This document shows positions 26,686 to 46,600 of a DNA stretch of 64,000 nt, one piece after another. The stretch spans positions 30,920 through 94,919 of the forward strand of contig JBNGIO010006298.1 of assembly GCA_049999805.1 (NCBI GenBank), read 5' to 3'. Positions within the stretch are counted from its first letter, which is position 1, and every line of letters starts with the position of its first letter. The notes under the pieces were generated by a model. The model searched no databases. It saw only the letters and a program-made list of their open reading frames with translations, and had not been told where the DNA came from. A program made the position numbers and the translations under genes. This DNA is from Folioceros fuciformis. Taxonomy: Eukaryota.

Positions 26686-29600
26686 ATGGCTGATCCTCCC
26701 TCAACCACGGACACTCCCAAAGCAACCTCGGCTCGCAAATCGGCGGTGCCGGCCCCCCGCAGCTCCAAATCACAGCCGGGAGCCACGACCAGCTCCATCC
26801 CGGAGGCCGGGCCTTCCAAGGTTGAGGCAGAGCCAGAGAGGGACCCCAATCGCCTGCCCCAGACTGCCGCTCGCCTCCTGCATTCCTTCGGCTTGGAGGT
26901 GTTCTAGAGTGGTTTCAATGGCTCAGCTCAGCTTTCGCTTCCAGTTCTTGTGCCTTAGGTCACATCTGTGTAAACGTTCGTTTGCCTTTTCAGGGAAGCC
27001 GGAGGAACAATGTGTGCTACATTTCTGAGAATGTGCTCCAGTATTCTGCTGGAAATGCTGTGCACTTTTTTAATGTGAAAACCAAGAAGATCGAAGCCTA
27101 CCTCCCTGTGAGTCCTCTGTTTGCCTGCCTCGCGACAAGCAAGCACCTGAACCGGGCAAAGATCAATGTTACACACGTTTTGCATGGTCGCAGAGTGTAG
27201 AAGGACATGGAATTGGAGCAGTCTGCGTTCACCCTACCAAAAAGTATTTTGCAGTCTGCGAGAAAGGACACAACCCTGGCATATATGTCTACGAGTACCC
27301 ATCTCTGAAATTCAGCAAGGTCAGTGACATCCAGGCTCAGCGGTATTTTTTCCTGCCCCGGTTGTTCATCTCAGATGACCAGGTCAAGCAGGAGCTGTAT
27401 CAAGGGTCAGTTTGCTACACACCTGATCCTGTTGTTGGAGCGGACATGCAGATTTCAAGGCTAATGAATTCTGTTTCTGAGGATGCAGCAACTCCATGAC
27501 GGGACAGAGAACCAATACACCGCCGCAGCATTCAGTCCAGATGGAACTCAGCTAGCAACAGTAAGTTAGCTGTGGCAAGCATATATGGATCAGTCCCGTG
27601 GCAGCTGGAATGCTAAGGAGAAGTCCTGTTTAATGTAGGTCGGCGGGTACCCGGATTACTGGCTCTCAGTTTGGGACTGGTCTGGAGAGTCTATCATTCT
27701 CCGATCTAAAGCATTCTCGCAAGATGTGTTCCAGGTAAAGCAGTCCACCTTCTTTGGCATTTCATGTTCTCGGTTCACGCAAGGTCCTCCACCACCCTTT
27801 GAACATAAAATGTGATGTCCGGGATCGACTGATAGCTGACTGCTTCAAATGCTTCATAGGTTTCATTCTCAAGGGTGCTTCCAGGCACCCTCATCACCTC
27901 GGGCGTTGGCCACATTCGCTTCTGGAAGATGGCTGTCACTTTCACCGGGTTGAAGCTTGAGGTGCGAAGTTGCAACTTGCGTCTTCTTCCTATTCCAGGA
28001 CGTTCAATAGTTGCCTGATCTCTCAGTTCGCGTGCAGGGTCAAATAGCAAAATTTGGCACGGTGCCTATCTCTGACATTGCTGGATATGCTGAGCTGAAA
28101 AATGGCAAAGTAAGCCGGACACCCGATTTTGCAACATACTTGGTGTGTCCAAAGACCACCCCAGATTTGCAAGTTTCTTAACCTTGTGGGCACAGGTGAT
28201 ATCCGGGACAGAGGTGGGAAGTATCCTCTTGTGGGATGGCGGTCTTGTCAAGTGTCAGCTGACAAGACCGGCTGGAGCTCCGTGCCATGATGGGATGATT
28301 GAAGTCCTGCTGCTGGACGAGGCTCATGGTCAGATGATCACAGCTGCAGCTGATGGCTTCGTTCGATTCTGGGGACTTGAGGTGATGGTTTATGCTCTTT
28401 CTTGTGCACCTCTCTGCAGCTGTCTTCACATCGTTGGCAGCAATCGTACTAGTGTGCAGTAGTGCTCTTGTCTGCCTTTGTGTCCATGTGAGAACACCTT
28501 TGATAACCTGAAAAACTGTGAAGTGGCTGGAACAAGCTGACGACGGAGATGATAAACTAGTTGTTGAAATAGTCCCTCGCCGCGAAGTGCAAGTTGATAA
28601 GAACTGCAAAATAAAGGGCATCCTGTTTGAAGCAGATCATTGGATCATTCAGGTTTTGATCTACCTTGCTCATGTTTTCATACATTTACAACGTGGCTGA
28701 AAAGATCTGTTGAAAGTGCAGCTGGTAGCATAGCGAGTTGCGAGTCCTTCTACAATGCGCCCATATGTGCAGGATGAGGGTGGAGCCATTTGGAAAGTGC
28801 ACACACCTTCTTTCGACATTGAGAAGATATTTCAGTTCCACGCCTCGTCCATAACAGGCGTTGCAAGCTCTCCCAGCACCTACTTCATCGCCAGTGGCGG
28901 TTCAGATGGCTCCGTAAGCACTAGCATGACAATCAGTGTGATAATGCACTTGTGGTGTTCATGGCTTTTCTCTGAACCACAGTGGACTAAGCACTCTCTT
29001 CAGGTAAAACTTTACAATTACAAGGAACCACATCAGATCCAGTCGCGGACATTCTCGACAGCAGTGACTAGTCTGCTGTGGCTGCCACTGCGTTTGGATC
29101 CATCTAGCTGCACCATAATTGCTGGATTTGCTGATGGGGTTATCAGAATATTGCAGCAAACTGTGACCAATTGGAGACTCCTACAGGCTCTGAAGCCTCA
29201 TAAGGTAGACAGCTCACCGACTTTTGACTTGTCCCACGTTCATATTGAGTCGAAGTACTTTCTAATATTCTGCGCACAGGACAACTATTACAAAGCTCGT
29301 ATTTCTGGCTTCAGATGGACGTGACTGCCATGCGACTGACTCCAGATGCAGAGATTTTAGCCACAACTTCCACGGATACCAGTGTCTTTTTCTTCCACAC
29401 GGTTGAAAACTATAGACCAATCGGGTGAGCACTCTTCTGCATCTTTGTCCAATCAGTTGACCCTTTTGTCTGGTCCTCGGCCTGATGTTGCATCATATGA
29501 TCTGGGTCAGATATGTGATGGGTCCAGGGCAGATCACATGCGCGGACTGGTCACCAGACGGGAAAGGCTTTCTTATGGGCTGCAGTAATGGAGTAATTTC

Positions 29601-32600
29601 TCACCTGAATCGCCCAGGCAAGTTCTCGTGTTCTGAAAAGCGTACTCCTTGACATGATTCATTTGCTTCAACAGCCTGCCGTCTGCCTGTTTCTGTACTT
29701 ACAGATCTGCACCCAGATACCTCTGTCACCTTTGAGTTGAAGCCGCCTCTCAAAAGCTTCACCTATCGCCTCCCCAAGCCGCCGAAAAAGATTGAGCTAG
29801 TCGTGGAGCCACCTCCGGTTTGCTCATAGCAGTTCCATTCACTTGATTTGATTTGCTCATATTTCTGCACAACGATCTTAAGAGTTCAGTTGCCCAGAAG
29901 CATGCTCTTGATCTCCTTCTCAATTCCTAGGAGATGTAGGTGCCAGTTTCGCCTGAGGTGGCCACCAGCGGGGATGCCACAGGTGACCAAGCTAAGAAAA
30001 CTGAGGAATCAGGTGAAGGAGGAGGCGTAGAGGAAGCAGAAGAGAAAGAAGGAGCAGAAGGAGGAGAAGAGGTAGCAGATGGTAAAGAGGTACCCCCAGC
30101 TGCACCAGCTCCTGAAGTTCCTGCGCCTCCTGAACCAGAGCCAGAGCCAGAAGAGGAACAGCCAATTTGTACTCTCCCAGTTCGGGCAATCTTGTACACG
30201 AATGGCACCTTATCCACATTCTACATCGCCATAGAGGTGAGCTGAAATCCACCGCACATTTGATCCATTCATTCTCGCATGGCATTCCCCAATGGACATC
30301 ATACTTGTGCGTGCAGGGGAAGGGAATGGGATATCTCTACGAATGCAGGCTGGATTCCAAGGAGGTTCTGGGCACCGCCAAGTGGCTTGCCACTTGTGTT
30401 AAATGCCTGGGGTGGGTGTGAAGGTCTGCACCTCAAGCCGATGTCAACCCAAGACCAAACAATTCTGACATTGATTCACACTTGCAGATACTCTCCTGGT
30501 AAAGAGTACCTGGTTTCAGGATCAGACGACGGCGTTGTAAGAATACATGCAGCACCCGTGCCTGGCGAACTCCAACACTCTGATCAGCTGAGCTACTGGG
30601 AAGGCGCGATACATGATGGGTTTAAAGGAGTTGTCGGTGGAGCCGTGCTTAGCTTTGATAACATGTATCTGGTAAGAACACGACGCCCATTGTCCTCGCC
30701 GACAGCTTACGAGGACGAGGCTCACTTCAGCAGATGACTGTGCTATGTTAGGCAAGCGTGGGGTATGATGGGAGCTTCTTTATTCATTTCCTGGATCTGA
30801 AGATCTACCCTGACAAGGAGGGCAAGCCAATTAATGCCGTTAAAGGTGCGAACTAGGTGATGGAGAGATGCTACGGTGTTGAGAACTCCCCTCTGAAATC
30901 AACGAGCGTGCATCAAGGCACCAGTGTCATGCCGACAGAGATGCACTGTCAGATATTTGACTCATTCTCTTGTGCACCTTTGTGAAAACAGCGAAGCCTG
31001 AAGCTCAGCCCGAAGCTGCTGACTTGGGTGCCGGTGTTTACAGCATCGAGGAAGCTAAGCAGAAGGCAGAGAAAGACAGGCAGCTAATTCTAGCTCTTCA
31101 AAAGAAGGCTTTAGTGCTGACCCATGTTGAGGCCATCAGGAAAGCACTGTCTGATCTCATCAAAGAGAACGAAGCTAAAACCGCAATCGAGAAGTTGGAT
31201 ATCTCCGAGTTCGAAATAGACCCTCACCTGAGAGTGTATGTCTGGAGTTCGTTCAAAGGCTGTTAACAGTCTGAATACAAGTTTCTTCTCAAAGTGCCAA
31301 ATATCATCTGTACTTAATCTTTGTTGTGGCGCGCATGTGATCTTTCTCCATGTGATCTCTCTCCAGCATGATTCAGGCTGAGACTGAGGCAAATGTTGAC
31401 ATGGCTCACAAGGAGCTCCAGTACGAAAGTGAAAGAAGGAATATCGCATTGAGGAAACTCCGGGCTTACTTCCTGGATGACATAGAGGTAAGGACGGCCA
31501 AGGTCAAGGTGTGAGCTCAAGTTCAACTGATATTTGTTGCTGGTCGGCTATTCAGAACTTCAGTCTGCGAATGCAGGTCGAACATATCGTCTTGCATGCT
31601 TTCCATTCTGGCAAAACTGTATCAACTTTCCGGACTGCAAGATTGTCACAAGAGATATTGGTACGGTAGTTCTTCTTAGGAGTGTTCTCCTAGCAACGAA
31701 AGCACTCTTAAATGTTTGTGCTAGGTTCCGCAGCCAGTTGAGCAACTCTTACAACTGATGATGGCTTCTGACAGGATCTCATAGAAGAAGCACGTATACA
31801 AGTACAAGGGTTGAAGCGGCCGGTGAAGACTCCGGTACTTATCAGGAAGGAGATTCATCAGCCTGGGGATGAAACCAGGGTGAAAACAGATGAAGATGAG
31901 GTAGCAATCAATACTCTTGACGCAGCGCATCTTCATTTTGGAGCAAGATTGTGGCTAGTAACATGGAGCTGGCCAGAAATGCAGTCGCTTTCTTCTATCA
32001 AAATTATAGATGCAATGTACGGTACACGACTCAGGAGAGAAAGGAATTGTGAGATTCTGATCTTGCGAAGCTCCGCAGGGCATTTTCAAAGTAGAGCATC
32101 CCGTCGGGGACACCATGGAAGACAGAAGGCTTCTTATGAAGAAAAGAGAAAGAGAATGGCTCACATTCTTGAAATCCAAGCCGGACGAGGTAAAATTCTA
32201 TCCAGTTGTCCAAGGATTAGGAATTGTCTGCATACCAGCCATTCCCGTGAAAATGTGGAGGAGAACTGGCGCTGTGTCTTCCTTTCGGATATTTCCAGAC
32301 GTACGTAAATCAAGAAGATGCTCTCGCCATCAAATGGGCAGAAGAGAACAAGGGAGACTTCAAACTGAAATCTGATCCAGATTACCGAGCGCCGGAGGAG
32401 CTGGAGACAAATGCCACGAGGAAACGAAACGAGATGTTGTTGTTCGTAGAAGCAGTTCACAAGGCCAAAATGGAGTACAATGCAAAATTCTTGGCCTTGC
32501 GGGTGAGAAAGAAAGAAATTGAAGGCCAAATCATTCGAGGAAATGCGAGAATCAAAGAAATCAATGGTCTTCTCAAGTATTGCTTTGGAACAGTGAACTG

Positions 32601-35600
32601 TCATGACAGAGATGAGTATTGTTGGAGGCCACCAATCAGAGGTTGCTGACTATCACAGTTGTATGCATCCTCAGAGTGAAGGACGAGGTGTTATTCGTCC
32701 CCCAAAAGTTCAGGGATGAGACTCCAGAAGACCGGGAAATTGTGACACAGCAGGTGAGCTTGATGAGAGTCAGGCGCAGCCATGTCACATACCTCATATC
32801 CTATACCTGACCAGGTCCTCTCATTCTGTAGGAAATGGACGATCTTGTCGCAAAAAGAAAGGCTGCTGAAGAAGCAGCGAAGAATGTATGACGTATTGAC
32901 CCTGATAGCAGCAAACTGCTGCTATCACAGTAGCAGGGTGACACACTGATGACTCCACAACCTCACACTATCTAGCTTTTGCAGGAAGGAAAATCAAGCG
33001 GATTCACGTCGGGCTTGGGGGCAGCCAAAGAAGGAGCAGACAAAGACGGCTCCTTGAGAATCGGTCGCAGGTCGGTATCCCCGCAGCAGAGGAAACGCAC
33101 ACCAGAGAAAGCAGGCCCGACACCAGTCAGGGTTTACCCACCCTCAGCTCTGGAGGTGAGTGGCGGGAAACGATCGGTGTCAGCCTCGCTGGCGAAAACT
33201 GACGGGTGCTTAAACTGACATCAAGTGCTCCTCAAACCTTGCTGAATCCAGCGTTCATAATTTGCGCAGCTGGCGGAGCAAGAAGCAGCTCAAATCAAAC
33301 TGAAGTACGAAATGGAGAAAATTCTGGAGAAGATGGAAATTGCCGTCAATAACTTCGACCACGCTTTGGAGGAGCTGCGGCAGACGAAGATGAGGACAGA
33401 AATCAATATGAACATGGCTGCGCAAAAGTTTCTCTTCCTGTTCGAGGCAAACAGCTCATCCTGTGCAACTTTGTTTCCACACTTGTCAAAAGACGGACTC
33501 GTCTCTCTTCACGCATGCGCGTGTCATGTCCTATCATATCATGTGTTGCAATGTCTTCCGAGACCTGCAGGAACTGCGGCTCCTCAAAGTCCTCACTCCG
33601 ACAGAAGAGGCACTCAAGATTCGGCACGCTCAGAAAGTGAAAGATGTGACTGACTTCAAGGTACTCTCCATGAACTCCCACGGTATGCCTGAAATACACG
33701 TTACCTCCGACTCATCCCCCTCGCCTCGCTGGTTGGCATGGCAGAACAAAGTCCAAGAGCAGGAGAATGCGATCGAGAACAACAAGCAGCAGACCTACCA
33801 GTTTCATGAAGTCACCAAGAAGGTAAAGAGGTTGAAGCATGTGCGCATGTGGGCATGCCTATTGTGCCCACGTGGATGACTGTTGGGCCATGTTAGCGAT
33901 GGGTCATGAAGCTCATGGCCTGGACACGGGGAAATTTTGTCCTGTCAGGTCTTGTGTCGTGTCGGGAGCCTCGGTCCGGTACGCAAAGCACTGAGAGGCA
34001 AAAAGTTGTGCAAGAATCCCGGCCGGAATTGCATTGCGATTGCCATTGCTATGGCTCGGCGCTGGGCGGCCTGAATTGGGCCGTCCCCTCCCGCCCGTCT
34101 GGGTAGCTGGAATCGCTGCCATTGCCAGCATCCAGCACGCTGACGGCGAGAGCGGGCGGCGGATCGGGCAACGCTGCGTCCTCCGCGCTGGAAGGGGCCA
34201 GGGCCCGGCCATTGGTCGTCGCTCCCTGAGGAGAAGGAGCCTGCACGTCGGTGCGGTGGAGCAGCGGGAGCGGGGACGGGAGCGGGAGGAAAGTGCTACC
34301 GCACAGCAGAATCTGTAGGGCTGATTTGGATGGCCGGTAATTGGCAGCAAGGCTTGCTCTTGCCATTTGGCTGCGGGCTGGGAGTGGAATGGGATGGATT
34401 GTTGACAGTCTGCTGGATTGCGTCTGCTGATTCCGTCTGTAGCAACTGCTGCGAAGTAATGTGATTGCAACATTTTTGAATTGCTTCGGCGCGGGTCTGA
34501 GAGCATGCGTAGGAGCAGGAAGGAGGATTTCATCAGCTCAGCATCCAGTCTGCGACTGAGGAAGGAAGTGGGAGTTCGGGTGTGAGCTCACTGCTTGTGC
34601 ATGGCTTGTGACGAAGATTCGGGCGCCTGATCAGGAAGACCATGACATCCAAGAATCAGACCCACAATTCCTGCCAGCATCTGCTCGACTACAAGGCCAG
34701 GCACGGATTGCGTGGCTTCCGGGTGCTGCAAAAATGCTTGTTGACGGGGCCGTCTGGGAAAGCTCGAATCAGGAGGGAGGCCAAGGAGATTCCGAGCTGT
34801 GCCGTCTGTGGGAGGCCGCACGGGAGACTGTACGCCTGTCTCATTTGTGCCACCATTGGCTGTTGGAAGCTTCCAGATCCACATGCAAGCCGGCACGCGC
34901 AGACTCATCCGGGGCATGACCTGGCTGTGGATGTGGATCGAGCTGAGCTCTTCTGCGTCGTGTGTCATGACCAGATCTATGACCCTGACTTCGATCGGGC
35001 GGTCATCTGTGCGCAGAGTCTGGTCCGGCTGCAGGGCAGCGGGGCGGAGGAAGGGGGTCATGGTCATGGGAATTGTCACGGGAATGGGAATGCCATGTCC
35101 AACGGGGGAGAGGGGAGGTGGAGCAACAGCAAGGATTCTGGGGATGTCAAGGTGGGCAGTAATGACAGCCCCTCGTCCTCTGATGCCAAGCGTCAGCTCA
35201 AGGGCAACAACAGCAAGAAACGGGATGCGTCTGGTGGCCTTAACAAACGGCGCAGTGCGAAGGACTTGACCAACGGGAGAAAGTTTTCGGATTCTACTAG
35301 CACCAATACAGTCAGTAGCAGAGCCAGTAAAAGTGACCAACTGCCGCAACTGCATGTGAGCAAGAAGAGAAAGGCTGCACAGTACAGACCCTGGGTTCCC
35401 ACACCAGCTGAGCAATTGGCTCTCAGTCAAGGGTCTACACCCTTGACAGAGGACTCGGGCCTGCCATCAGGGCTCCGAGGACTGAACAACCTTGGAAACA
35501 CGTGCTTCATGAATTCGGTTTTGCAAGCCCTGTTGCATACTCCTCCTCTGAGAAACTATTTCCTCAGTGACCGGCACAACCGTGTCTTGTGCCAAAACCG

Positions 35601-38600
35601 GGCGTCCCATCTCTGCCTTGGATGTGACATGGATACCATTTTCTCTGCTGCCTTTTCAGGAGAAAGGACACCCTATAGTCCTGCGGAGTTCCTTTACAGG
35701 TGGTCATTCTTGGGTGAATTTGCAGCTCAGCTCACCTAATTTTACTTCCATGCATGTCTCGTTTTTAGATTTTGAATTTCGAATGTGTGTTAAGTTTCTT
35801 TGTGATTCTGGTGACCGATCAGTTGGTGGCGACACGCAGCAAACCTCGCAGGCTATGAGCAACAAGATGCACATGAGTTTTTCATATCCACTGTGGATGG
35901 TATTCATGCTAATTCAGGCACCACATCTCCACGAGCCAGGCGCTCACAAAATGCTGGAAGGTAATGCTGGTGGGGAAGGTTTTTTCTTTTCACTTTGTAA
36001 CAAGCCGCCTAGTCTGAATGATTTGACTAGCGATGCTACCTGGACAGTAAACCTGGAAGGACGGATGGTTAGGTTGTAAAGAAAAAGCGCTTTTGTGTGT
36101 AGGGTCCAAATTCCATGTTTTCGCTTGGACAATGACTTTGAATTGTCTGCATACAGGGCGGGCGATGTCGATTGTCAATGCATTGTACATCGAGTGTTTT
36201 CGGGTGTTCTCCGTTCTGATGTAACCTGTACAGTCTGTGGATTCACATCCACAACCCATGACCCTTGCGTGGACATTTCCCTGGACCTGGAACCTGATAC
36301 AGGTGACTTCAGCTCCATCAATGGAGAAAGCCATCACAGCAGATCAGCTTCTGCAGGAAGCCATGGTTCTGGTTCTAGCCTGTTGGGATGCTTGGACCGG
36401 TTCACCAGGCAAGAGCGTCTTGGAGCTAATGAGAAGTTCTACTGCCAGAAATGTCAAGTTCGGCAGGAGTGGATTAAGCAGATGTCCATCCGGAAGCTTC
36501 CTCTGGTGCTGTGCTTTCACATTAAACGCTTCGAACACTCTACCACGAGGAATACTTCACGAAAAGTTGATCGGTACCTGCAGTTCCCAATTCATTTGGA
36601 TATGGGCCCTTATCTGTCATCATCTGTTGTGAGACTAAGGCTTGGCAACAGGATGTTGGTGATGGACAGTGAAGAGGTGGGCCAGTCCCTGGATAGGCCA
36701 CCCCCTCAGTTTGAGCTTTTTGCAGTCGTGACACATTCTGGGAAGCTTGACTCTGGTCACTATGTTTCCTACCTTCGCCTTGGTGGCCAGTGGTACAAAT
36801 GTGACGATGCATGGGTAACACGAGTCAGTGAAGATGTTGTGAGGGCTTCGCAAGGCTACATGTTGTATTATGTCCAGAAGAGGCTGGCATACAAGGCTAC
36901 TGAGTCCTTGGATGCTGACAACAATGGCAACCATGGGGATACTGGATATGTTTCAACTGTTTCTCCATAGCCAAACATTTGCAACTGCCATTGTGTGTTG
37001 AGCTGCAGCAGCTGTCCACTGTGAAGCGCAATGAAAAGGTGGTGTGCTGATATTTGTAAAAGGCTCTCAATGAGTCATATCAGGCCCTGTGGACGGATTC
37101 TTTGCTGAGATGCAAAGAGAGTTGTAGTGAGGCTTCGAATTGCTCTGGCTCCTTCCATTGTTGCCTCTTGCGTTTCCGCCTTTTCATGCAGAGGGAGGCA
37201 TTCTGCTTGAAGGATCTGTCCAATTTTTTCTTAACACCGATAACTTTAACCATTAACCACACTCGTGTTGGTCTAACTGTGCTTCAAACTTTCTATGTGT
37301 TATCTGCCGTCTAATTTCGTCCGCTACAGGGTCCATGGAACTATGGGATGTGACAATCTCAAAAACAGGTGAAGTATAGTTCTGTTTTTCATGGAAGAGA
37401 ACTGTGTCCCGCAAATCCGCAAACACACCACGGCAATATGAGATTCGCAACAAATGTAGTTGCCATGCTTGTCACTGTCATCACCAAATACGTGGGAGGC
37501 ACTTCCACACAGAGCCTCCCACATAGCTGATGTGTCTTGTCGCATACATTTCAACTTTGATTTTGTGTGACGTATATTATTAGCCGTTGCTCGTAATTTG
37601 ATATTCCTCGTTCGCTTGCATGCCGCTGTCTAGGATTTTAGCTGAAATAACTGGCTGCCGGTTGCCATCAAGATAGGACCCTGATCCGTGTTTTGTTTGT
37701 TAGTTACTGGTTGACTTCGAAGCTCTGATTGGGGAGGAGAACCCACATGAAGCGGTTCTTCGTAAATTGTACCTGAAAAAAATCAAGCGCATCAAGAAGA
37801 AACAGGGTGCCGATGATGGTGATTCAGATGAATCAGAGGAGGAGGAAGACGATGATGATGATGACGACGATCTAGAGGAAGATGATGTATGTTTCTTAAA
37901 AATTTCGTTTGCTTTATATCATTTGCTCGAACTTCTTCGGAATAAAAAGGTGTTGTGGAAGTTGTGTTGTGGTGTCACGAGGCTGTGCTTTCTGTTTTCT
38001 TGCCAGGAACCTGAAGTTTGCCCTCCTGGTGTAAAGGAGGAGTTGTACAATTCAGTAATGGCCCTAAGGATAAAACGCATGGAGCAATACTATGGAATAA
38101 AGGATAATAAAGTCTTCTTAGATGGTAAGTATAACAACTTAGGTTATACAACAACTTAACAGAGTAGTGGTTCCTCCTCTCATCTCGTTTGCATCCTTCT
38201 CGGGGTCCAACAGCTATGGTTAGGGAGAAAGAGAGTTTGTTGAAGAAAAAAAAGAACGTTGATGCTGCGCTGGATTCGATTGAGGAGGAAATGGATCAGT
38301 TCCTAGTCTCAAAGCAAGACGCTTTGAACAAAGTTGACATTTGCCTTACTCTCAAAATGCATCAGGTCTGACATGAAGCTGCTGTTCAAACTTCTCTGCG
38401 TCCTTTCAAGTGGGTAACAAATTGTTCCATTGTTGACTTACCCTGAGATAATCCCTCGTGGTGCATTGCCTTATCTTCTGAAGGTTGAGTATTTGCAAGA
38501 AGGAGCTGTGCCCCAAAACCTTTCAGGCGCTTTAGTGTTCAGCAACATATCTTTGCAACAACTGAAAGGAAGGATTGACGAGCTCGCTCAAGAGAGAATT

Positions 38601-39657
38601 GCTCTACGGAAGTTGCAGAAAGAGCTTTGGAAGCAAAATCAGGGTCTGTGCCGCGAGAGGAAAGCAAATGAGGCTAAAGTTGCAGAATGGGAGATGAAGG
38701 TTATTGACATTCAGATGTTGAAGTTTGGCCAGGTTTTATTCTGACCTCCAGACATATACAGGGCTCTAATCTGTGAACGCACATGGCCAACATCCTTGCT
38801 CACTATGTCTCTACTCCTTCCTTAGGTCATCGATCTGGATGCTCTGGACTCGATTAGTGTCCAAACAGGGTCAGAAGACCTGAAGGAGAAACTAAAAATC
38901 CAAGAGGAGAAGAATGCAGCTGAGTTAGCTGCCCGAAACAAAAAGATTCACCAAGCAACGGATGAGCTTTCTAGTAAGCCTCGTGATATAATCTGGTCCA
39001 GAATACCAGTAAATTACTCAGGGTTCGAAGTCTCATCGTTTCGCCCTCGCCTTAGGGTTGATAAAGGAGAATGCTGCTTGTTTGAACTGCATTGCGGACA
39101 TAAAGGAGAAGCAGATGGACATCTCAAAGGTACATTGTCCTGGGAATCGTTCTGTTAAGACATCTTGATGTGAAGGTGCAGGTTTGTAGTTCACGAACAT
39201 GCCAGGGGGCCTGAACCTCAGCAATTCACATAGTGCGAAACGGTTGTTTGCCCACACAGAACATGAAAGGAAGAGCAAGTGGAACTGTTTTGGATCCGCT
39301 GTTGGAAAAGAAGAAAGAGGAAGTGGAGTACAGACGCTNNNNNNNNNNNNNNNNNNNNNNNNNNNNNNNNNNNNNNNNNNNNNNNNNNNNNNNNNNNNNN
39401 NNNNNNNNNNNNNNNNNNNNNNNNNNNNNNNNNNNNNNAACCCGCCTCCTCCTCCTCCCAACCCCCCCTTTTATCTGGACAAAGATCTGAGTCTACCAAT
39501 TTTGTGGCACGAACGTTGCCTTTTGCAGATAGTTCACGAACATGCGCAAAAGATTGACGATTTACGGAACCGGCTGCGACAGCTGAATACCGACAAGCTC
39601 ACTGTTTATCCGTACCAGACATCAACCACGATAGTGCACAGCAAAAACCAGATCTAG
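26686..39657 (+). CDS. CFAP44: Cilia- and flagella-associated protein 44 (WDR52), more than 40 exons, with a 3.9-kb intron 33823-37703
   Basis: WD40 N-terminal half: [98 protein letters not shown]. Coiled-coil half: [33 protein letters not shown] plus an acidic tract, [30 protein letters not shown]. Confidence 0.9.
34642..36970 (+). CDS. UBP22: Ubiquitin-specific protease 22 (SAGA DUB module; zf-UBP + USP domain), exons 34642-35699, 35823-35960, 36157-36970, nested in the CFAP44 intron
   Basis: zf-UBP CAVC...RLYACLIC...HASRH...[27 protein letters not shown], Cys box [39 protein letters not shown], and His box GHYVSY...WYKCDD. Confidence 0.95.
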
Positions 39658-40262
39658 CGCAGAGCGATTTGGTGAGCCGCTAGATGATCTCGATTACATT
39701 GCGGCATGTCATTTTTGGCTAGCAGGATCCTGAATTGCTCTCGCGTTTCCGCGTCCGCCAATCCTGCAGGGAGTATCAACTCCTCAAGCGGCACGTCGAG
39801 GTCCTTGTAAATCTGTTCAAGCTGTTCAATTTGCAGCATTATCCTGCGCTGGTCTTCCTCTATCTGTTGAGTCCGAATTTCCAGCTCCTTGTCCAGCAGG
39901 TGGATGCGCGACATCGTGCCAGTACGGTCCTGGTAATCGAGCTTCTCCTCCCAACGATTGAGGAAAGCCTTGCATTTCTCTCTCTCTTCCACAGCACGTC
40001 GATGCTGGGCCTCCACAGACCGACGGACATCGGAAACCACAGGCTCCAACTTGGAAGGCCAATTGCGGAGAGTCGCAGCCGATGACGAGTCTCTGCTTTC
40101 GTCGTACTCTTTCCACTCACTCTTTTTCTCAAATGATAGCCGGCAAGGCGTTGCGGCCATCCTAGTGCTTCCTCTCCAAGGGGTTCTTTTGTCCTCGTTT
40201 GCACGTGCACTTGCTCGGCTCTCTTGTGCCCTCACCCTCCAACGCCCGCCACGGGACGACAT
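39654..40262 (-). CDS. Orphan intronless coiled-coil protein (up to 202 aa), unknown function
   Basis: A 609-nt open frame with protein-like E/K/R/Q/L heptad composition (LLDKELEIRTQQIEEDQRRIMLQIEQLEQIYKDL). No family recognised, and the start is uncertain. Confidence 0.55.
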   Translation of the reverse strand: MSSRGGRWRVRAQESRASARANEDKRTPWRGSTRMAATPCRLSFEKKSEWKEYDESRDSSSAATLRNWPSKLEPVVSDVRRSVEAQHRRAVEEREKCKAFLNRWEEKLDYQDRTGTMSRIHLLDKELEIRTQQIEEDQRRIMLQIEQLEQIYKDLDVPLEELILPAGLADAETREQFRILLAKNDMPQCNRDHLAAHQIALR

Positions 40263-40890
40263 CCGAGATGACAGGCAAAGCTACCAGCAGGTGCGGAAGT
40301 ACAACTCCTATCAAGAACAAGTATCCCTAACCACCTCAAAGAATTTTCAAGCAAGAGTTTCCCACGGGAGGAGGCATGGATCATCGTCTCCCATTCATTT
40401 TGCAATCAAGATTCAAGAACGGCTTGCACACATATGTCCTGTATGGATGTACTTAAAGAAGAGCGAATATACGCTACTGTGGAGCACATGTTCACATAAG
40501 AAAGTGGCCAGCCAGGCCAAGAGTGAGAACTTGGAACCTTGTTAGCAACCCAAATAGATCTCTTCCCGTCCATGTAACAATTAGTCGATTGGTTAATTAA
40601 AAATACATGATATACATGGCAGTCTCGCTGCCACCCATCAAAATCGGGATCGCAATCCTGACATGGTTTCCGACTAAGGAATGTTAAATCTGCAGCCAGA
40701 CTGCAACACACGAGTCAAGCAAGTCAAGGTCCCCTGTAGGCAGAGTATCGTGACCCATCTGTATCAACAGCTTATCTTGCGAGGAACAGTTCTGCTGCTT
40801 CTCTGAGACTTGCCAGAGCGCAGAGTCAATAAAAATGATAATTTCCACCCACGTTCCACCGAAGAATGAAGAACCTCCCACGAGAAAATC

Positions 40891-42405: not shown

Positions 42406-43616
42406 GGTTGCAGGCAGGCAGGCAGGCCCGCCAGGGAGGAAGGAAGGGAGCGAGGATGCCTGTTCTGCTCTGTCCTGTCCTGCCCTGCCCTTTCCTGCCC
42501 TGTACTGCGCTGTGATCAGAGCAGCCAATGTAGCATCCTTTCACACCGCGCTCCCCGCGACTGCCGCGTCCATCAAACTGCTGCCGCCGCGGCCATCTCC
42601 AGGGCAATGCGGTGTGGGGCGAGGCAGGGCAATGCCGTGCGGGCGGTGATCACACACCGCCGGTGCCACTGCCGCGAATACGCTGCTGGACGCAGTGCAG
42701 ACGCGGGAAACAGGGAAAGGAGGGTAACAGAGGCGAGCCAAAGCGGGAGCCAATGGCAGACAAAGGACCAGGGCAGAGGAAGAGCGGGAGGTGCAGCCCC
42801 GGGCAGTTCATGTGAAGAGCATTCAAAGGCTTTTCAAGGGGTAAGGGGTCAGTAAGGTGCAGGCTTTAGACGCACGGACGTCCACTGCGAGATGCTGACT
42901 GGCCCAAGATCCACTACGTTCTAAACCCTGTCTGCCTCCCGCCTTCACCGGCTCCATTTCCGACCTAGTTTTATTCCTCCACAGCGGCTGGCTGGTCTCC
43001 CGCCATCCATGCATTCTAGGATGTTGGTCTATATGGTTACACAACATACTAGGTCGACTTTCGTTTTCTCCTACATTCTGATGATGCTGACCCTACTCTT
43101 GTTCCTCTGTTGATGCCAGACGCCAGAAGTTGCCATAGCTACTCTCTTGCAGTAACGTGGTGCCATGGCATAGCTCGCACTGGCTGGCGGGAAGGAGAAG
43201 AACCCATGTGCTTCACATCACAGAAGCTCATCACACCACAACTCCCCACACGCTTACAACAAGCCTCCTCCCTGGAAGCCTTGGATTCCAAGCTCGTCTC
43301 AAGCTTAGTCCTAGAGAACTCGAGGTTAATGAGCCTGCTGTTTCATCCACGGCACTGGAATTGCAGGTGAACAGTTTCAATTATTTTACTGCTTCACTCT
43401 TCCTGCTATGGACGAATATATGGTGGAGGAAATTCCAATGATGTCCCTTGAAAATCTTGGATCATGGATAGAATGCTTGTACGTACCCTGGAAGGGATGC
43501 AGAGCCTGTGCTCGATACCGAGATTCAAACCATGCAGCTAGCTCGTTGTCCAATGCTTCAAGGGAGGGTGACCTTAACCACGCTATATTGTAACTACAAT
43601 ACATGTGTACAATTGT

Positions 43617-46600
43617 CTACAATTCAAGAGGTTCAAGAGCAAGCGCATGGCCTCCCTCAGAAACAGGGGTGAAAAGAAGTCTCTTGGCATGCTCCATGGG
43701 TGGGAGGGGTGTGAAGCCAGCGTGATCTCTGTAGAAGAAATGTATGGTCCTGGCCATGTGGAAAAACAGGTTCTTGTACGCGTGGGGACCGTTCGACCGT
43801 TGGCTCGTTATGCTTGCTTGTGTCAGCTCCTGCATGTTTGCATCTATTGTGTTGCGAAGATACTCCATCACCTCGTCTTCTGTCTTCTCAGGATGATTCC
43901 TCATGTAGTTGACAACGCTGTTGCTCCTCTGTGACACGGTCGGCTCTCCCTGCACAATGTCATGTAGAATCCTCATCAGGGTTCAGCTCATGAATCGAGA
44001 TTGCAGGGAGCAAACAAGCATCCGCTAGCCTGGGAAACGACTTTCAGTCGGAGAGCAGGAACTGTGGTTTGGTCATCAACCTGTTTGTAGGCACTGATGT
44101 CCTCAAGCAGGCGGCCAACAGCATTCAATTTTTGCGTCAGCGCCTTGAACTCGTCTCCTTCCAACACATCATCGCTCAACTCGTCACCCACAAAGAACAT
44201 GGCTGGCAGTACAACACGTGACAGACCGATTGCTGACTCCGCATTTCTTATGTATTCCGACCATTGGGGAACTCTGCCAGCTTTGGTCCACTCCAACTCC
44301 AACAATGTTGCCTCAATCCAGCTTTTGTACTGAAACCAAATTGGCCCAAGCAAACGTACTACCATCAGCATTTGACAATTTGTGTGACCGTAGCTAAGTC
44401 TCCAACTCGAGAAAAATGTGGACACGCAGGTACAAGTGTGAGGGTCTTACAGGGCCAATCAGATGCTGTGTGATGTCCCGGCCCTGCGTGACAAATGCTT
44501 CGGCTGCCATGGCGTTGATACTGGAGTGTAGACCCTTGAATATGATGCTTTGTCGCTGGTTTCCGATGTCGATGAGGGATGGATCCCAGCTGGGCACAAT
44601 ACGTCCGAGGCAACAAGGCAAATTAGTCTCTCAACACTACCATCACCTTACGAAGGGAGAATGCATTGACGAGGCTGCACCTGTCCACAGCAGCTTGGAA
44701 TTGCCGGAGCTCCTCGATGCTAATGTTTGTGTGGAAGTAATCGTACAGCAGGATGCCGGTGAGTACTCCACACTGGGCCCACACTCGGCGGGCGCTGCTA
44801 AGCTGAGGCTCATACATGTTAGCGGCCGCCGAGAAGAAGACCACCATCAGCCTTTCCTTTGAGACAGACACCTTCTCAAAATCGTGCTCCAAGCTCCAGC
44901 TGCATGCATGCAACAAGATAAAGGGGGATTCGTCAGAAAGAATGAAGAACGCCGACTGCCTACCCGATTGCAGATTCTCAGATGTTTGCCAGTACCGGAC
45001 AAGTTGCTCAAGCTCCTCCCGGTACTCCTGCTGCCGCAACAGGTAATCGGCCTTGGCAAGGGCCAGGAACGTCTCATTGTGAACATACGGCATCCTAATT
45101 AATGAATGCCAAATCCAACGTCGTCAGCACTCGAACCTCCACGAATTCGGCATGCTATCCTCAATCATGCCAGAACTGCAGGGTCACTTACTTGTACAAG
45201 GACTTGCCGATCCAAATATCATCGCTCCCGTAGTGATCGAGGTAAGCTCGCGTCTCAACACGGGGCAAGCTGGCATAGAAGGGGTACGTCAAAGCATACT
45301 CCACTTCCCCTGGAAGGTCCTTGGTGATGATCCACTTGTCGGAGATGTCGTTGGCCCTCCATTTCTCCTCAAGGAAGTTGCGTGTAAAGCTCCGAGCCGA
45401 CTGCAGGAGAGCCTCTCCAGGAAGCATCATCTGGGAGGCTCGGTGCAAATTGAACATGCCCGTGACTGCTGAATCGCTCTGGCCAGCAAAGCAGAAGAAC
45501 TCATCGTCCTTGTGGAAGGGCAGGAAGACGTCAGATGAGACGTCGTATCCGTGTTGGCGCAGGAGACGAAAGCCCATGGCCGTGTCATCCACGTCGCTAA
45601 TCACAGCCTCTCGAGCCCAAGCGATGCCGTTGGGTGCCCAGTTCTGGCACACGTAGTCCAGGCACACTTTGATCTCCTTCTGGAAGTAGTGTGCGATGCC
45701 CAGACGCTGAAGCCTGTCCACGATCCACATGTGCTCGAACAAGTCCACCGGGTACACATTTGGAACTGCACACACACACCCAGCACAGGGAGCCAGTGAG
45801 TCGATCCACCACTGGCTAAAAAAATGCAGGCGACGCAGCGATTCGATCATGATGATCAGCATAGTTCTACGCATGGGTTGAATCTGGTGATTGATGAAGA
45901 ATCGCACCTGCATTGTCAAATTGCTCCAGCACGTTGTTGAGATATTGGAGACATTTCTGGTCCCCAGTGTACATGAGCGCACAGGCGGTGGACGCAGGGG
46001 AACACAGGAAGGAGCCATCCTTGGATTGGAGCTTTAGAAGACGGTTCCAATCCACCAGGTCGCGGAGGCCCTCCAGGGAGTGCAGCAAAGTGCTAGGATA
46101 TTCATGCACAACCTCCATCGGGATCCTGATCAACACCAACAAATCATACCCCGCATTTAACCTTTGCATGCACTTGGCGAGCAGGAAAAGTTAAAATGCT
46201 GAAAAACAGAGCACACACACTAGACTCACTTCTTAAGCTTGCGCTCTCTTTCCACCAGGATTCTGTGTGTCATTGGGTGATCGTAAGGAAGGTCCAGTCC
46301 CAGCTTCTTGGCATCCTCCATCATGGCGGGAAAGACGATTTCGAATCCTATGGGCATGTGATCCTCTGGCTCGTCGGCAATCTTGTGAATGTTGTGAGTG
46401 ATGAATTCGCAGCCTGGATTGAGCTCACAGACAGCACCAGAATTGAGGTGAGGAAAAAACAAAGACATTTTGTGGCGTTCTCAGATGCGGATCTAAGTTC
46501 GTTTGTGTCATGAGTGAGTGACGATGCGACATGTTCACTGACCTCTCGTGACATTGGGAGCACCGATGTTCCAGGTCTTGAGCGCCACTACGCAGGCCAC

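Follow-up and report, generated by a model that had tools for sequence, protein, structure and literature searches.

Sequence and RNA-contig evidence for a UBP22 deubiquitinase gene nested on the same strand within an intron of the flagellar gene CFAP44 in Folioceros fuciformis

Nested protein-coding genes, in which one gene lies inside an intron of another, are common in animals. In Drosophila, about 10% of genes take part in nested structures; 71% of nested genes are on the strand opposite their host and 72.5% of the same-strand ones are single-exon, which is read there as selection against mis-splicing; same-strand nested genes with introns of their own are correspondingly depleted in flies (PMC3814207). 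For the mouse H13/Mcts2 pair, nested transcription was shown to drive premature termination of the host (PMC13309782). Here we describe a pair of the rarer kind in a spore-bearing land plant. We analysed a 64,000-nt stretch of Folioceros fuciformis contig JBNGIO010006298.1 (the window, within which all positions are counted), where a complete gene for a UBP22-type deubiquitinase lies, on the same strand, inside a single oversized intron of CFAP44, a gene of the flagellar axoneme. The evidence supports the structural reading of this locus as a genuine same-strand nested gene pair, to which we assign a probability of about 0.75.

The UBP22 gene (34642-36970, + strand) lies wholly between two adjacent CFAP44 coding exons of the same strand. 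The exon directly before it (33745-33822; 26 codons, ending ...QFHEVTKK in phase 0) runs up to a border that reads ...CAT GAA GTC ACC AAG AAG|GTAAAG, that is ...CATGAAGTCACCAAGAAG|GTAAAG, at 33822|33823, while the exon directly after it (37704-37886; 61 codons) begins with TTA CTG GTT GAC behind a border reading ...TGTTTTGTTTGTTAG|TTACTGGTT at 37703|37704. Reading these border letters confirmed as exact the intron coordinates given in an initial annotation made from the sequence alone. The intron itself (GTAAAG...TTTGTTAG, 33823-37703, + strand) measures 3,881 bp and encloses the entire UBP22 gene. Its outsized length, also part of that annotation, is evident against the 36 other introns of our draft CFAP44 model, which range from 53 to 399 bp with a median of 98.5 and the longest of which includes the 100-N gap at 39339-39438; the 14 introns near the junction that are fixed by RNA joints or by frame span 78-178 bp. 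The window contains five runs of N (10582-91, 12425-34, 24805-904, 26190-289 and 39339-438), none of them within 33823-37703. A repeat search of 33400-38100 returned no direct-repeat families, and thus no sign of a transposon or a target-site duplication, together with three weak inverted pairs, all within UBP22. Rfam and tRNA scans of 33000-38500 gave no match.

The nested gene has three coding exons, each on the + strand and each supported by frame and by RNA joints: exon 1 (34642-35699), which also carries Pfam support and encodes a zinc finger, a low-complexity linker and a Cys box; exon 2 (35823-35960); and exon 3 (36157-36970), again with Pfam support, which holds the remainder of the catalytic domain, a His box and the stop codon TAG. 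Together they form 2,010 nt, or 669 codons plus stop, without an internal stop. Pfam assigns a zf-UBP domain to residues 53-116 (PF02148, E 3.1e-13) and a UCH/USP domain to both exon 1 and exon 3 (PF00443, E 3.5e-14 and 2.8e-31, respectively). The motifs NTCFMN, with Cys288, and SGHYVS, with His600, are both present, and we take these two residues to be the catalytic ones. The earlier proposal of a three-exon coding sequence with intact Cys and His boxes is therefore borne out. A protein search with exon 3 yielded 385 proteins at E<=0.001 from 2,147 candidates. Among the best 120 of these, from which the identities are drawn, bryophyte proteins reach 73% (Sphagnum), 71% (Ceratodon), 70% (Calypogeia) and 68% (Riccia and Marchantia), and angiosperm proteins named "ubiquitin C-terminal hydrolase 22-like" reach 62-67%. 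The Sphagnum protein, at 73%, is the best of the matches listed in collections from which the window's own organism is absent. The closest solved structures are Ubp8 chains of the SAGA complex (E 8e-35 to 6e-34), followed by the USP2 family (9e-24).

These comparisons identify the nested gene, by sequence, as a predicted UBP22/Ubp8 orthologue, closer to these proteins than to other USP subfamilies. UBP22 of Arabidopsis, Ubp8 of yeast and USP22 of animals are the histone H2B deubiquitinases of the SAGA module. From its family membership, the nested UBP22 would be expected to share this role. Like them it combines a zf-UBP with a USP/UCH domain; unlike those compared, it carries a low-complexity linker of about 150 residues that separates the zinc finger from the catalytic domain. 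A moss-like metagenome locus shares the three-exon layout, with the first intron at the identical residue position 352|353, which points to an ordinary gene. We considered whether UBP22 might be a retrocopy and dismissed this on account of its own introns and the layout matching the moss-like locus.

The host gene was drafted over coding exons from 26660 to 39657 (+ strand) from tblastn, PDB matches and a draft model, and its 5' start is uncertain. CFAP44/FAP44 matches occur on both flanks of the nested gene and in the correct order. Upstream, a WD40 region detected by Pfam matches the CFAP44 chains 8j07_i7 (human, residues 493-544), 9d2f_Z and 9fqr_H9, and exon 32299-32574 matches residues 1429-1504 of FAP44 chain 8glv_Do (E 1.7e-11) and 1155-1227 of the human chain. 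Downstream, exon 37704-37886 matches 9d2f_Z 1458-1514 (E 2.6e-5), human 8j07_i7 1469-1525 and FAP44 8glv_Do 1775-1835, and exon 38484-38732 matches FAP44 1928-2010 (E 8e-17). In the window, 309 residues separate the exon start at 32299 from the junction; the corresponding number is 313 for the human chain, 316 for 9d2f_Z and 344 for Chlamydomonas. Because the homologous chains were solved in axoneme structures, the CFAP44 product probably belongs to the axonemal tether complex in motile flagella.

Joining the two flanks gives a spliced model of 749 residues (31356 to 38990, with RNA-supported splice sites) that is open throughout. A full HMMER search returned 118 CFAP44-type matches, of which the best was a lycophyte fragment at 58%; an earlier search of longer proteins with exon 38484-38732 had found none among 80 candidates at E<=0.001. 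When 12 homologues were compared with the 749-residue model, a high-scoring segment pair (HSP) covered the junction, residues 460|461, in 11, and the alignment was gapless there in 10, which indicates that no host exon is missing. The exceptions are P0121, a poor alignment with a 4-residue gap at the junction, and P0130, which stops short of it. Nine homologues, among them P0146, which is named CFAP44, align in single HSPs of about 740 residues. With three full-length homologues, tblastn gave colinear matches from 26692 to 39114, and a draft model of 38 exons, 5,322 nt and 1,773 codons runs without a stop to the TAG at 39655-39657; its N-terminal part matches P0125 (33-876) and P0146 (22-908) in one HSP each. 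This model comes from a second run of our exon chainer and is a draft; the first run gave too much weight to homology hints, left sequence derived from introns in place and was set aside. The ordered structure matches, the phase 0 junction and the gapless alignments uphold the earlier claim that both flanks are CFAP44 in one frame and, with the 669-codon open frame between them, that a complete same-strand UBP22 lies within the CFAP44 intron.

Contigs from four sequencing runs add a view of transcription at the locus. X1 derives from the window's own organism, and X2, X3 and X17 from three relatives that are roughly 90-99% alike. The runs carry no RNA label on record (guessed as "RNA?"), and we judged their origin from the contigs, which skip GT..AG introns on the + strand and so derive from + strand RNA. 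Of the 45 X1 contigs, 44 are at least 99% identical to the window, with no differences listed. Since short-word contigs may merge overlapping RNAs, they speak to splice joints and contiguity, while single molecules, their ends and their amounts are beyond their reach; depth increases along the host gene and is unfit for ranking genes or parts of genes. Cover is absent from X2 at about 37448-37703, from X3 at 33695-34129, and from most 5' host exons in both X2 and X17.

UBP22 is expressed as its own spliced RNA. The joints 35696->35820 and 35958->36155 occur in all four runs, confirming the splice sites of both introns, and X2 record 10 (3,182 nt) contains UBP22 without any host exon. Small host introns are likewise removed as predicted, for example at 33153/33268, 37886/38007, 38123/38213, 38363/38482 and 38730/38824. 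In three of the four runs (X1, X3 and X17) UBP22 is tied to host exons within one contig. X1 record 5 (4,142 nt) covers 33947-35696 and 36155-37886 with no differences and is unspliced from the UBP22 stop codon across the host acceptor; the host joints 37886->38007, 38123->38213 and 38363->38482 appear at the depth of this record. X3 record 16 (3,926 nt) comprises 34296-35696, 36155-37494 and the host exon 38482-38730. X17 record 7 (3,884 nt) begins in the upstream host exon, crosses the donor 33822|33823 unspliced and is unbroken over 33743-35696, continuing with 36155-37263 and 37681-37887. In X2 the same UBP22 and host exons are present, with no bridging contig. Transcription of the host through UBP22, as the initial annotation proposed, fits these contigs, which bridge both intron borders unspliced. 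Unspliced host RNA was present in the samples in any case, as other host introns are also retained: X17 record 6 covers 32297-32751 and keeps the 98-nt host intron 32577-32674, whereas X3 record 15 ends at 32576.

By contig cover (X1 record 5 and X2 record 10), the UBP22 leader extends from 33944 to 34641 (+ strand) and comprises 698 nt with 60% G+C and 7 upstream ATGs. The GC-rich leader noted earlier was recovered, with 63-66% G+C over 34000-34399. Contigs of X1 and X2 start at 33944-33947, about 120 nt beyond the host donor, and this shared start is a weak hint of a putative UBP22 start site. The 3' flank as far as the host acceptor (36971-37703, + strand), defined by contig cover and sequence, contains neither AATAAA nor ATTAAA in its 733 nt. 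The X2 contig stops at 37392 plus 55 unlike letters, and we discounted this end as evidence of a poly(A) site.

This flank also differs between organisms. A segment of 186 nt at 37494-37681 is absent from the relatives X3 and X17, and as the joint ends read GG..CC it represents an indel and no intron. Without it, the UBP22 3' region of these relatives stands about 20 nt from the host acceptor. In addition, one X1 contig fits the window from 37511 onward and is preceded by more than 255 letters foreign to it; the 30-letter piece just before 37511 had no match in the window at up to 3 mismatches, and the foreign letters could reflect a chimeric contig, a repeat or an exon located elsewhere.

Removal of the whole 33823-37703 segment as a CFAP44 intron is suggested by several features of the sequence taken together: splice-site quality, phase, the frame at the acceptor, the lack of a downstream start, the homologue alignment, an excess of synonymous substitutions and the fate of the competing splices. 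The intron is in phase 0 on both sides, and its donor (AAG|GTAAAG) and acceptor (a U-rich tract followed by TTAG|) equal those of neighbouring introns. The downstream frame opens exactly at the acceptor, where the in-frame TAG at 37701-37703 supplies the AG, and the downstream CFAP44 part has no ATG until well inside the exon that follows 37704-37886. We checked the cross-splices between host and UBP22, joining the host donor to each UBP22 acceptor and each UBP22 donor to the host acceptor; all four are out of frame and meet a stop within about 6-22 codons. Plain retention of the intron leads to a stop after 19 codons (33877-33879). With all of these ending early, only the pairing 33822->37704 would yield the protein, and mis-spliced forms would be truncated. 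Among the substitutions displayed for relatives in host exons 32151-33410, 10 of 17 are synonymous and 11 of 17 fall at third codon positions.

Several points weigh against this picture. The substitution count draws on 17 displayed cases, a small part of 538 rows. The acceptor 37703|37704 is passed unspliced in three of the four runs, and in X17 the donor is as well, so that these bulk samples contain an unspliced form; the 15 joints listed out of 44 do not include 33822->37704. PDB searches with the two nearest upstream exons (33571-33822 and 33270-33446) returned chance-level matches and no CFAP44, so that it is the joined alignment which assigns them to CFAP44. In the draft model, the 5' half comes from a rough in-house exon chainer and still contains some intron-derived residues. 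Finally, a further copy of UBP22 or CFAP44 may exist elsewhere in the genome.

With these points in mind, we propose that UBP22 is transcribed and spliced autonomously inside an otherwise intact, small-intron CFAP44. To make a full-length CFAP44 mRNA, the polymerase would have to pass through the UBP22 promoter, body and 3' end, and the spliceosome would have to pair the donor at 33823 with the acceptor at 37703 while skipping the four internal UBP22 splice sites, probably in sperm-forming cells. The bridging RNAs would then be host pre-mRNA, or intron-retaining or read-through forms. Cell-type control, transcriptional interference and hybrid isoforms, all raised by the initial annotation, are each compatible with the bridging contigs. 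A stronger version would cast UBP22 transcription as a gate on CFAP44: in vegetative cells the active promoter and the 3' end of UBP22 would cause host transcripts to stall, stay unspliced or end early, and full-length CFAP44 mRNA would be limited to sperm-forming cells, which damp either the initiation of UBP22 or the formation of its 3' end, the arrangement being kept in at least four related species because it helps to confine CFAP44 to the male germ line. The bridging contigs would then be the trace of such stalled, unspliced or short host transcripts. We offer this as a tentative idea of low probability.

The joint 33822->37704, which is missing among the joints listed, together with the unspliced crossing of the donor in X17 and of the acceptor in X1, X3 and X17, could instead signify that CFAP44 is effectively split. 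Its 5' transcripts would stop at 33877-33879, 19 codons past 33822 as expected of intron retention, and end with UBP22; its 3' exons would be a read-through tail of UBP22; and the two halves, never joined, would belong to a dying or two-piece gene. However, a separate downstream half would have a frame that opens at the acceptor and lacks an ATG until well inside the following exon, and the junction is in phase 0, with a consensus donor (AAG|GTAAAG) and a U-rich stretch ahead of the AG. A stop-free colinear model of 1,773 codons can be drawn, the junction alignment is gapless in 10 of 12 homologues, the displayed substitutions retain their synonymous excess (10 of 17), and the layout is maintained in three relatives at 90-95% identity. 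Contigs, moreover, drop rare variants, and the retention of intron 32577-32674 in X17 record 6 shows that other host introns are left in as well. We therefore consider a split CFAP44 unlikely.

Bridging contigs in three of four runs, from three organisms, would also be expected if hybrid host-UBP22 or UBP22-host read-through RNAs were regulated products, such as a UBP22 isoform with a long untranslated region or a truncated, WD40-only CFAP44. Yet short-word contigs may merge overlapping RNAs, each cross-spliced frame meets an early stop, and a UBP22 reading frame placed behind 7 upstream ATGs and a long host frame would probably translate poorly, so that we regard regulated hybrids as rather improbable. 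Misplacement of UBP22 between two CFAP44 exons during assembly is very improbable: although the window, a scaffold, contains five N runs and one of these (39339-39438) falls within CFAP44, the 33823-37703 segment contains no N, X1 record 5 matches 33947-37886 without a difference over the downstream border, and in the relatives X17 record 7 spans the upstream border and X3 record 16 the downstream one. The doubt about contiguity raised in the initial annotation is thus removed, as RNA contigs from several organisms cross both borders and the DNA must be contiguous.

Besides the organism of the window, at least two relatives (X3 and X17) have the nested arrangement, as their bridging contigs show. 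When metagenomes were scanned with a UBP22 alignment, 51 loci came back; a tblastn search of all 51 with 12 CFAP44 queries, comprising 2 models from the window and 10 homologues, gave no match at E<=1e-3. Informative flanks were limited to two moss-like loci, L004 and L005, the other loci being short or of seed plants. In these two, UBP22 is 79-84% identical to that of Sphagnum and has 8.3 and 6.5 kb of sequence before it and 10 kb after it; they probably represent one lineage. Seven open reading frames from the L004 flanks gave no Pfam match. As neither locus has CFAP44 beside UBP22, the nesting is lineage-specific and not general to bryophytes. The synteny that the initial annotation proposed to check is accordingly found in X3 and X17, which share the bridging layout, and not in the moss-like loci. 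Since both host halves are ancestral CFAP44 in normal order, the simplest origin would be the insertion of a DNA segment carrying UBP22 into a pre-existing, short CFAP44 intron in this lineage.

Compared with the nested genes of Drosophila, the pair is alike in that a complete gene with its own expression sits in a single, far-oversized host intron; it differs from the majority in that UBP22 is on the same strand as its host and has two introns of its own (PMC3814207). The pair also differs in that the nested UBP22 is the old, housekeeping-type gene and the host CFAP44 the tissue-restricted one, and in that the organism is a spore-bearing land plant with introns of about 100 bp. The further statement of the initial annotation, that nested genes are usually antisense, holds for Drosophila, with 71% on the opposite strand, and Drosophila is the sole organism to which this check extended (PMC3814207). 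H13/Mcts2 resembles our pair in having a nested gene inside a host intron that host transcripts must pass, with an expected conflict of transcription; there, interference and intronic polyadenylation are experimentally shown and depend on imprinting, whereas UBP22/CFAP44 is known from bridging contigs alone (PMC13309782). In another reported system, host transcripts that ended prematurely were mapped and were reproduced with minigenes; UBP22/CFAP44 is alike in that RNA continues from a host exon into the intron with the nested gene, as in X17 record 7. We found no literature on CFAP44 together with UBP22 or, among the results listed, on nested genes in bryophytes or lycophytes in a search that lay outside most subscription journals and outside genome annotations, and none on CFAP44 with the spermatozoid in plants. 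The UBP22/CFAP44 arrangement is real but, as a nested pair, fairly ordinary. It is one of the less common nested genes that share the strand of their host and contain introns, here in a plant whose introns are very short.

Some features of CFAP44 outside the nested region deserve mention. The host intron 33447-33570 has a GC..AG border (TTCGAG|GCAAAC...CCTGCAG|GAACTG) that the frame demands, and in X3 and X17 contigs the end of exon 33270-33446 is present as a 27-letter loose end just before 33570. The host intron 33661-33744 is 84 nt long, a multiple of three, and stop-free; the open reading frame 33412-33879 spans it, and its retention would add 28 residues. Either side of the gap 39339-39438, the 16 letters TAGTTCACGAACATGC occur after an AG, at 39187-39202 and 39530-39545. 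Early stops follow the copy ahead of the gap, and the one behind it opens the last CFAP44 exon, a pattern suggestive of local duplication or of an assembly fault at the gap. The lycophyte "hypothetical protein" P0121 (394 aa) is a CFAP44 fragment whose N-terminal part joins pieces matching exons 32079-32189 and 33571-33660 and then C-terminal exons; its model appears to skip exons, showing how easily CFAP44 is mis-annotated.

Two neighbouring genes were also seen. A 208-residue open frame on the minus strand (39654-40280), coiled-coil-like and with no Pfam match, ends right at the CFAP44 stop codon. It probably represents the final exon of a neighbouring gene in convergent orientation, with the 3' ends of that gene and CFAP44 abutting or overlapping. 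Further along, also on the minus strand, lies a terpene synthase gene (43600-46200; Pfam Terpene_synth N-terminal domain, E 3e-45, and metal-binding domain, E 1e-12). Its translation contains DVDDTAM, which we take to be the DXDD motif of class II diterpene cyclases and which would fit a copalyl-diphosphate or kaurene synthase type.

In summary, our analysis leaves what is known of the UBP22 and CFAP44 proteins themselves unchanged; annotators should avoid cutting CFAP44 in two at this locus. Among nested genes, those that share the strand of their host and contain introns run the greatest risk of mis-splicing and transcriptional conflict. This pair is compact, the intron measuring 3.9 kb and the others of the host about 100 bp, and it couples a broadly needed chromatin enzyme with a gene required only for sperm flagella, an arrangement kept in several related species. 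It offers a convenient natural test, outside the seed plants, of how a host transcript contends with an active promoter inside it, a 3'-end signal and four splice sites that compete with its own.

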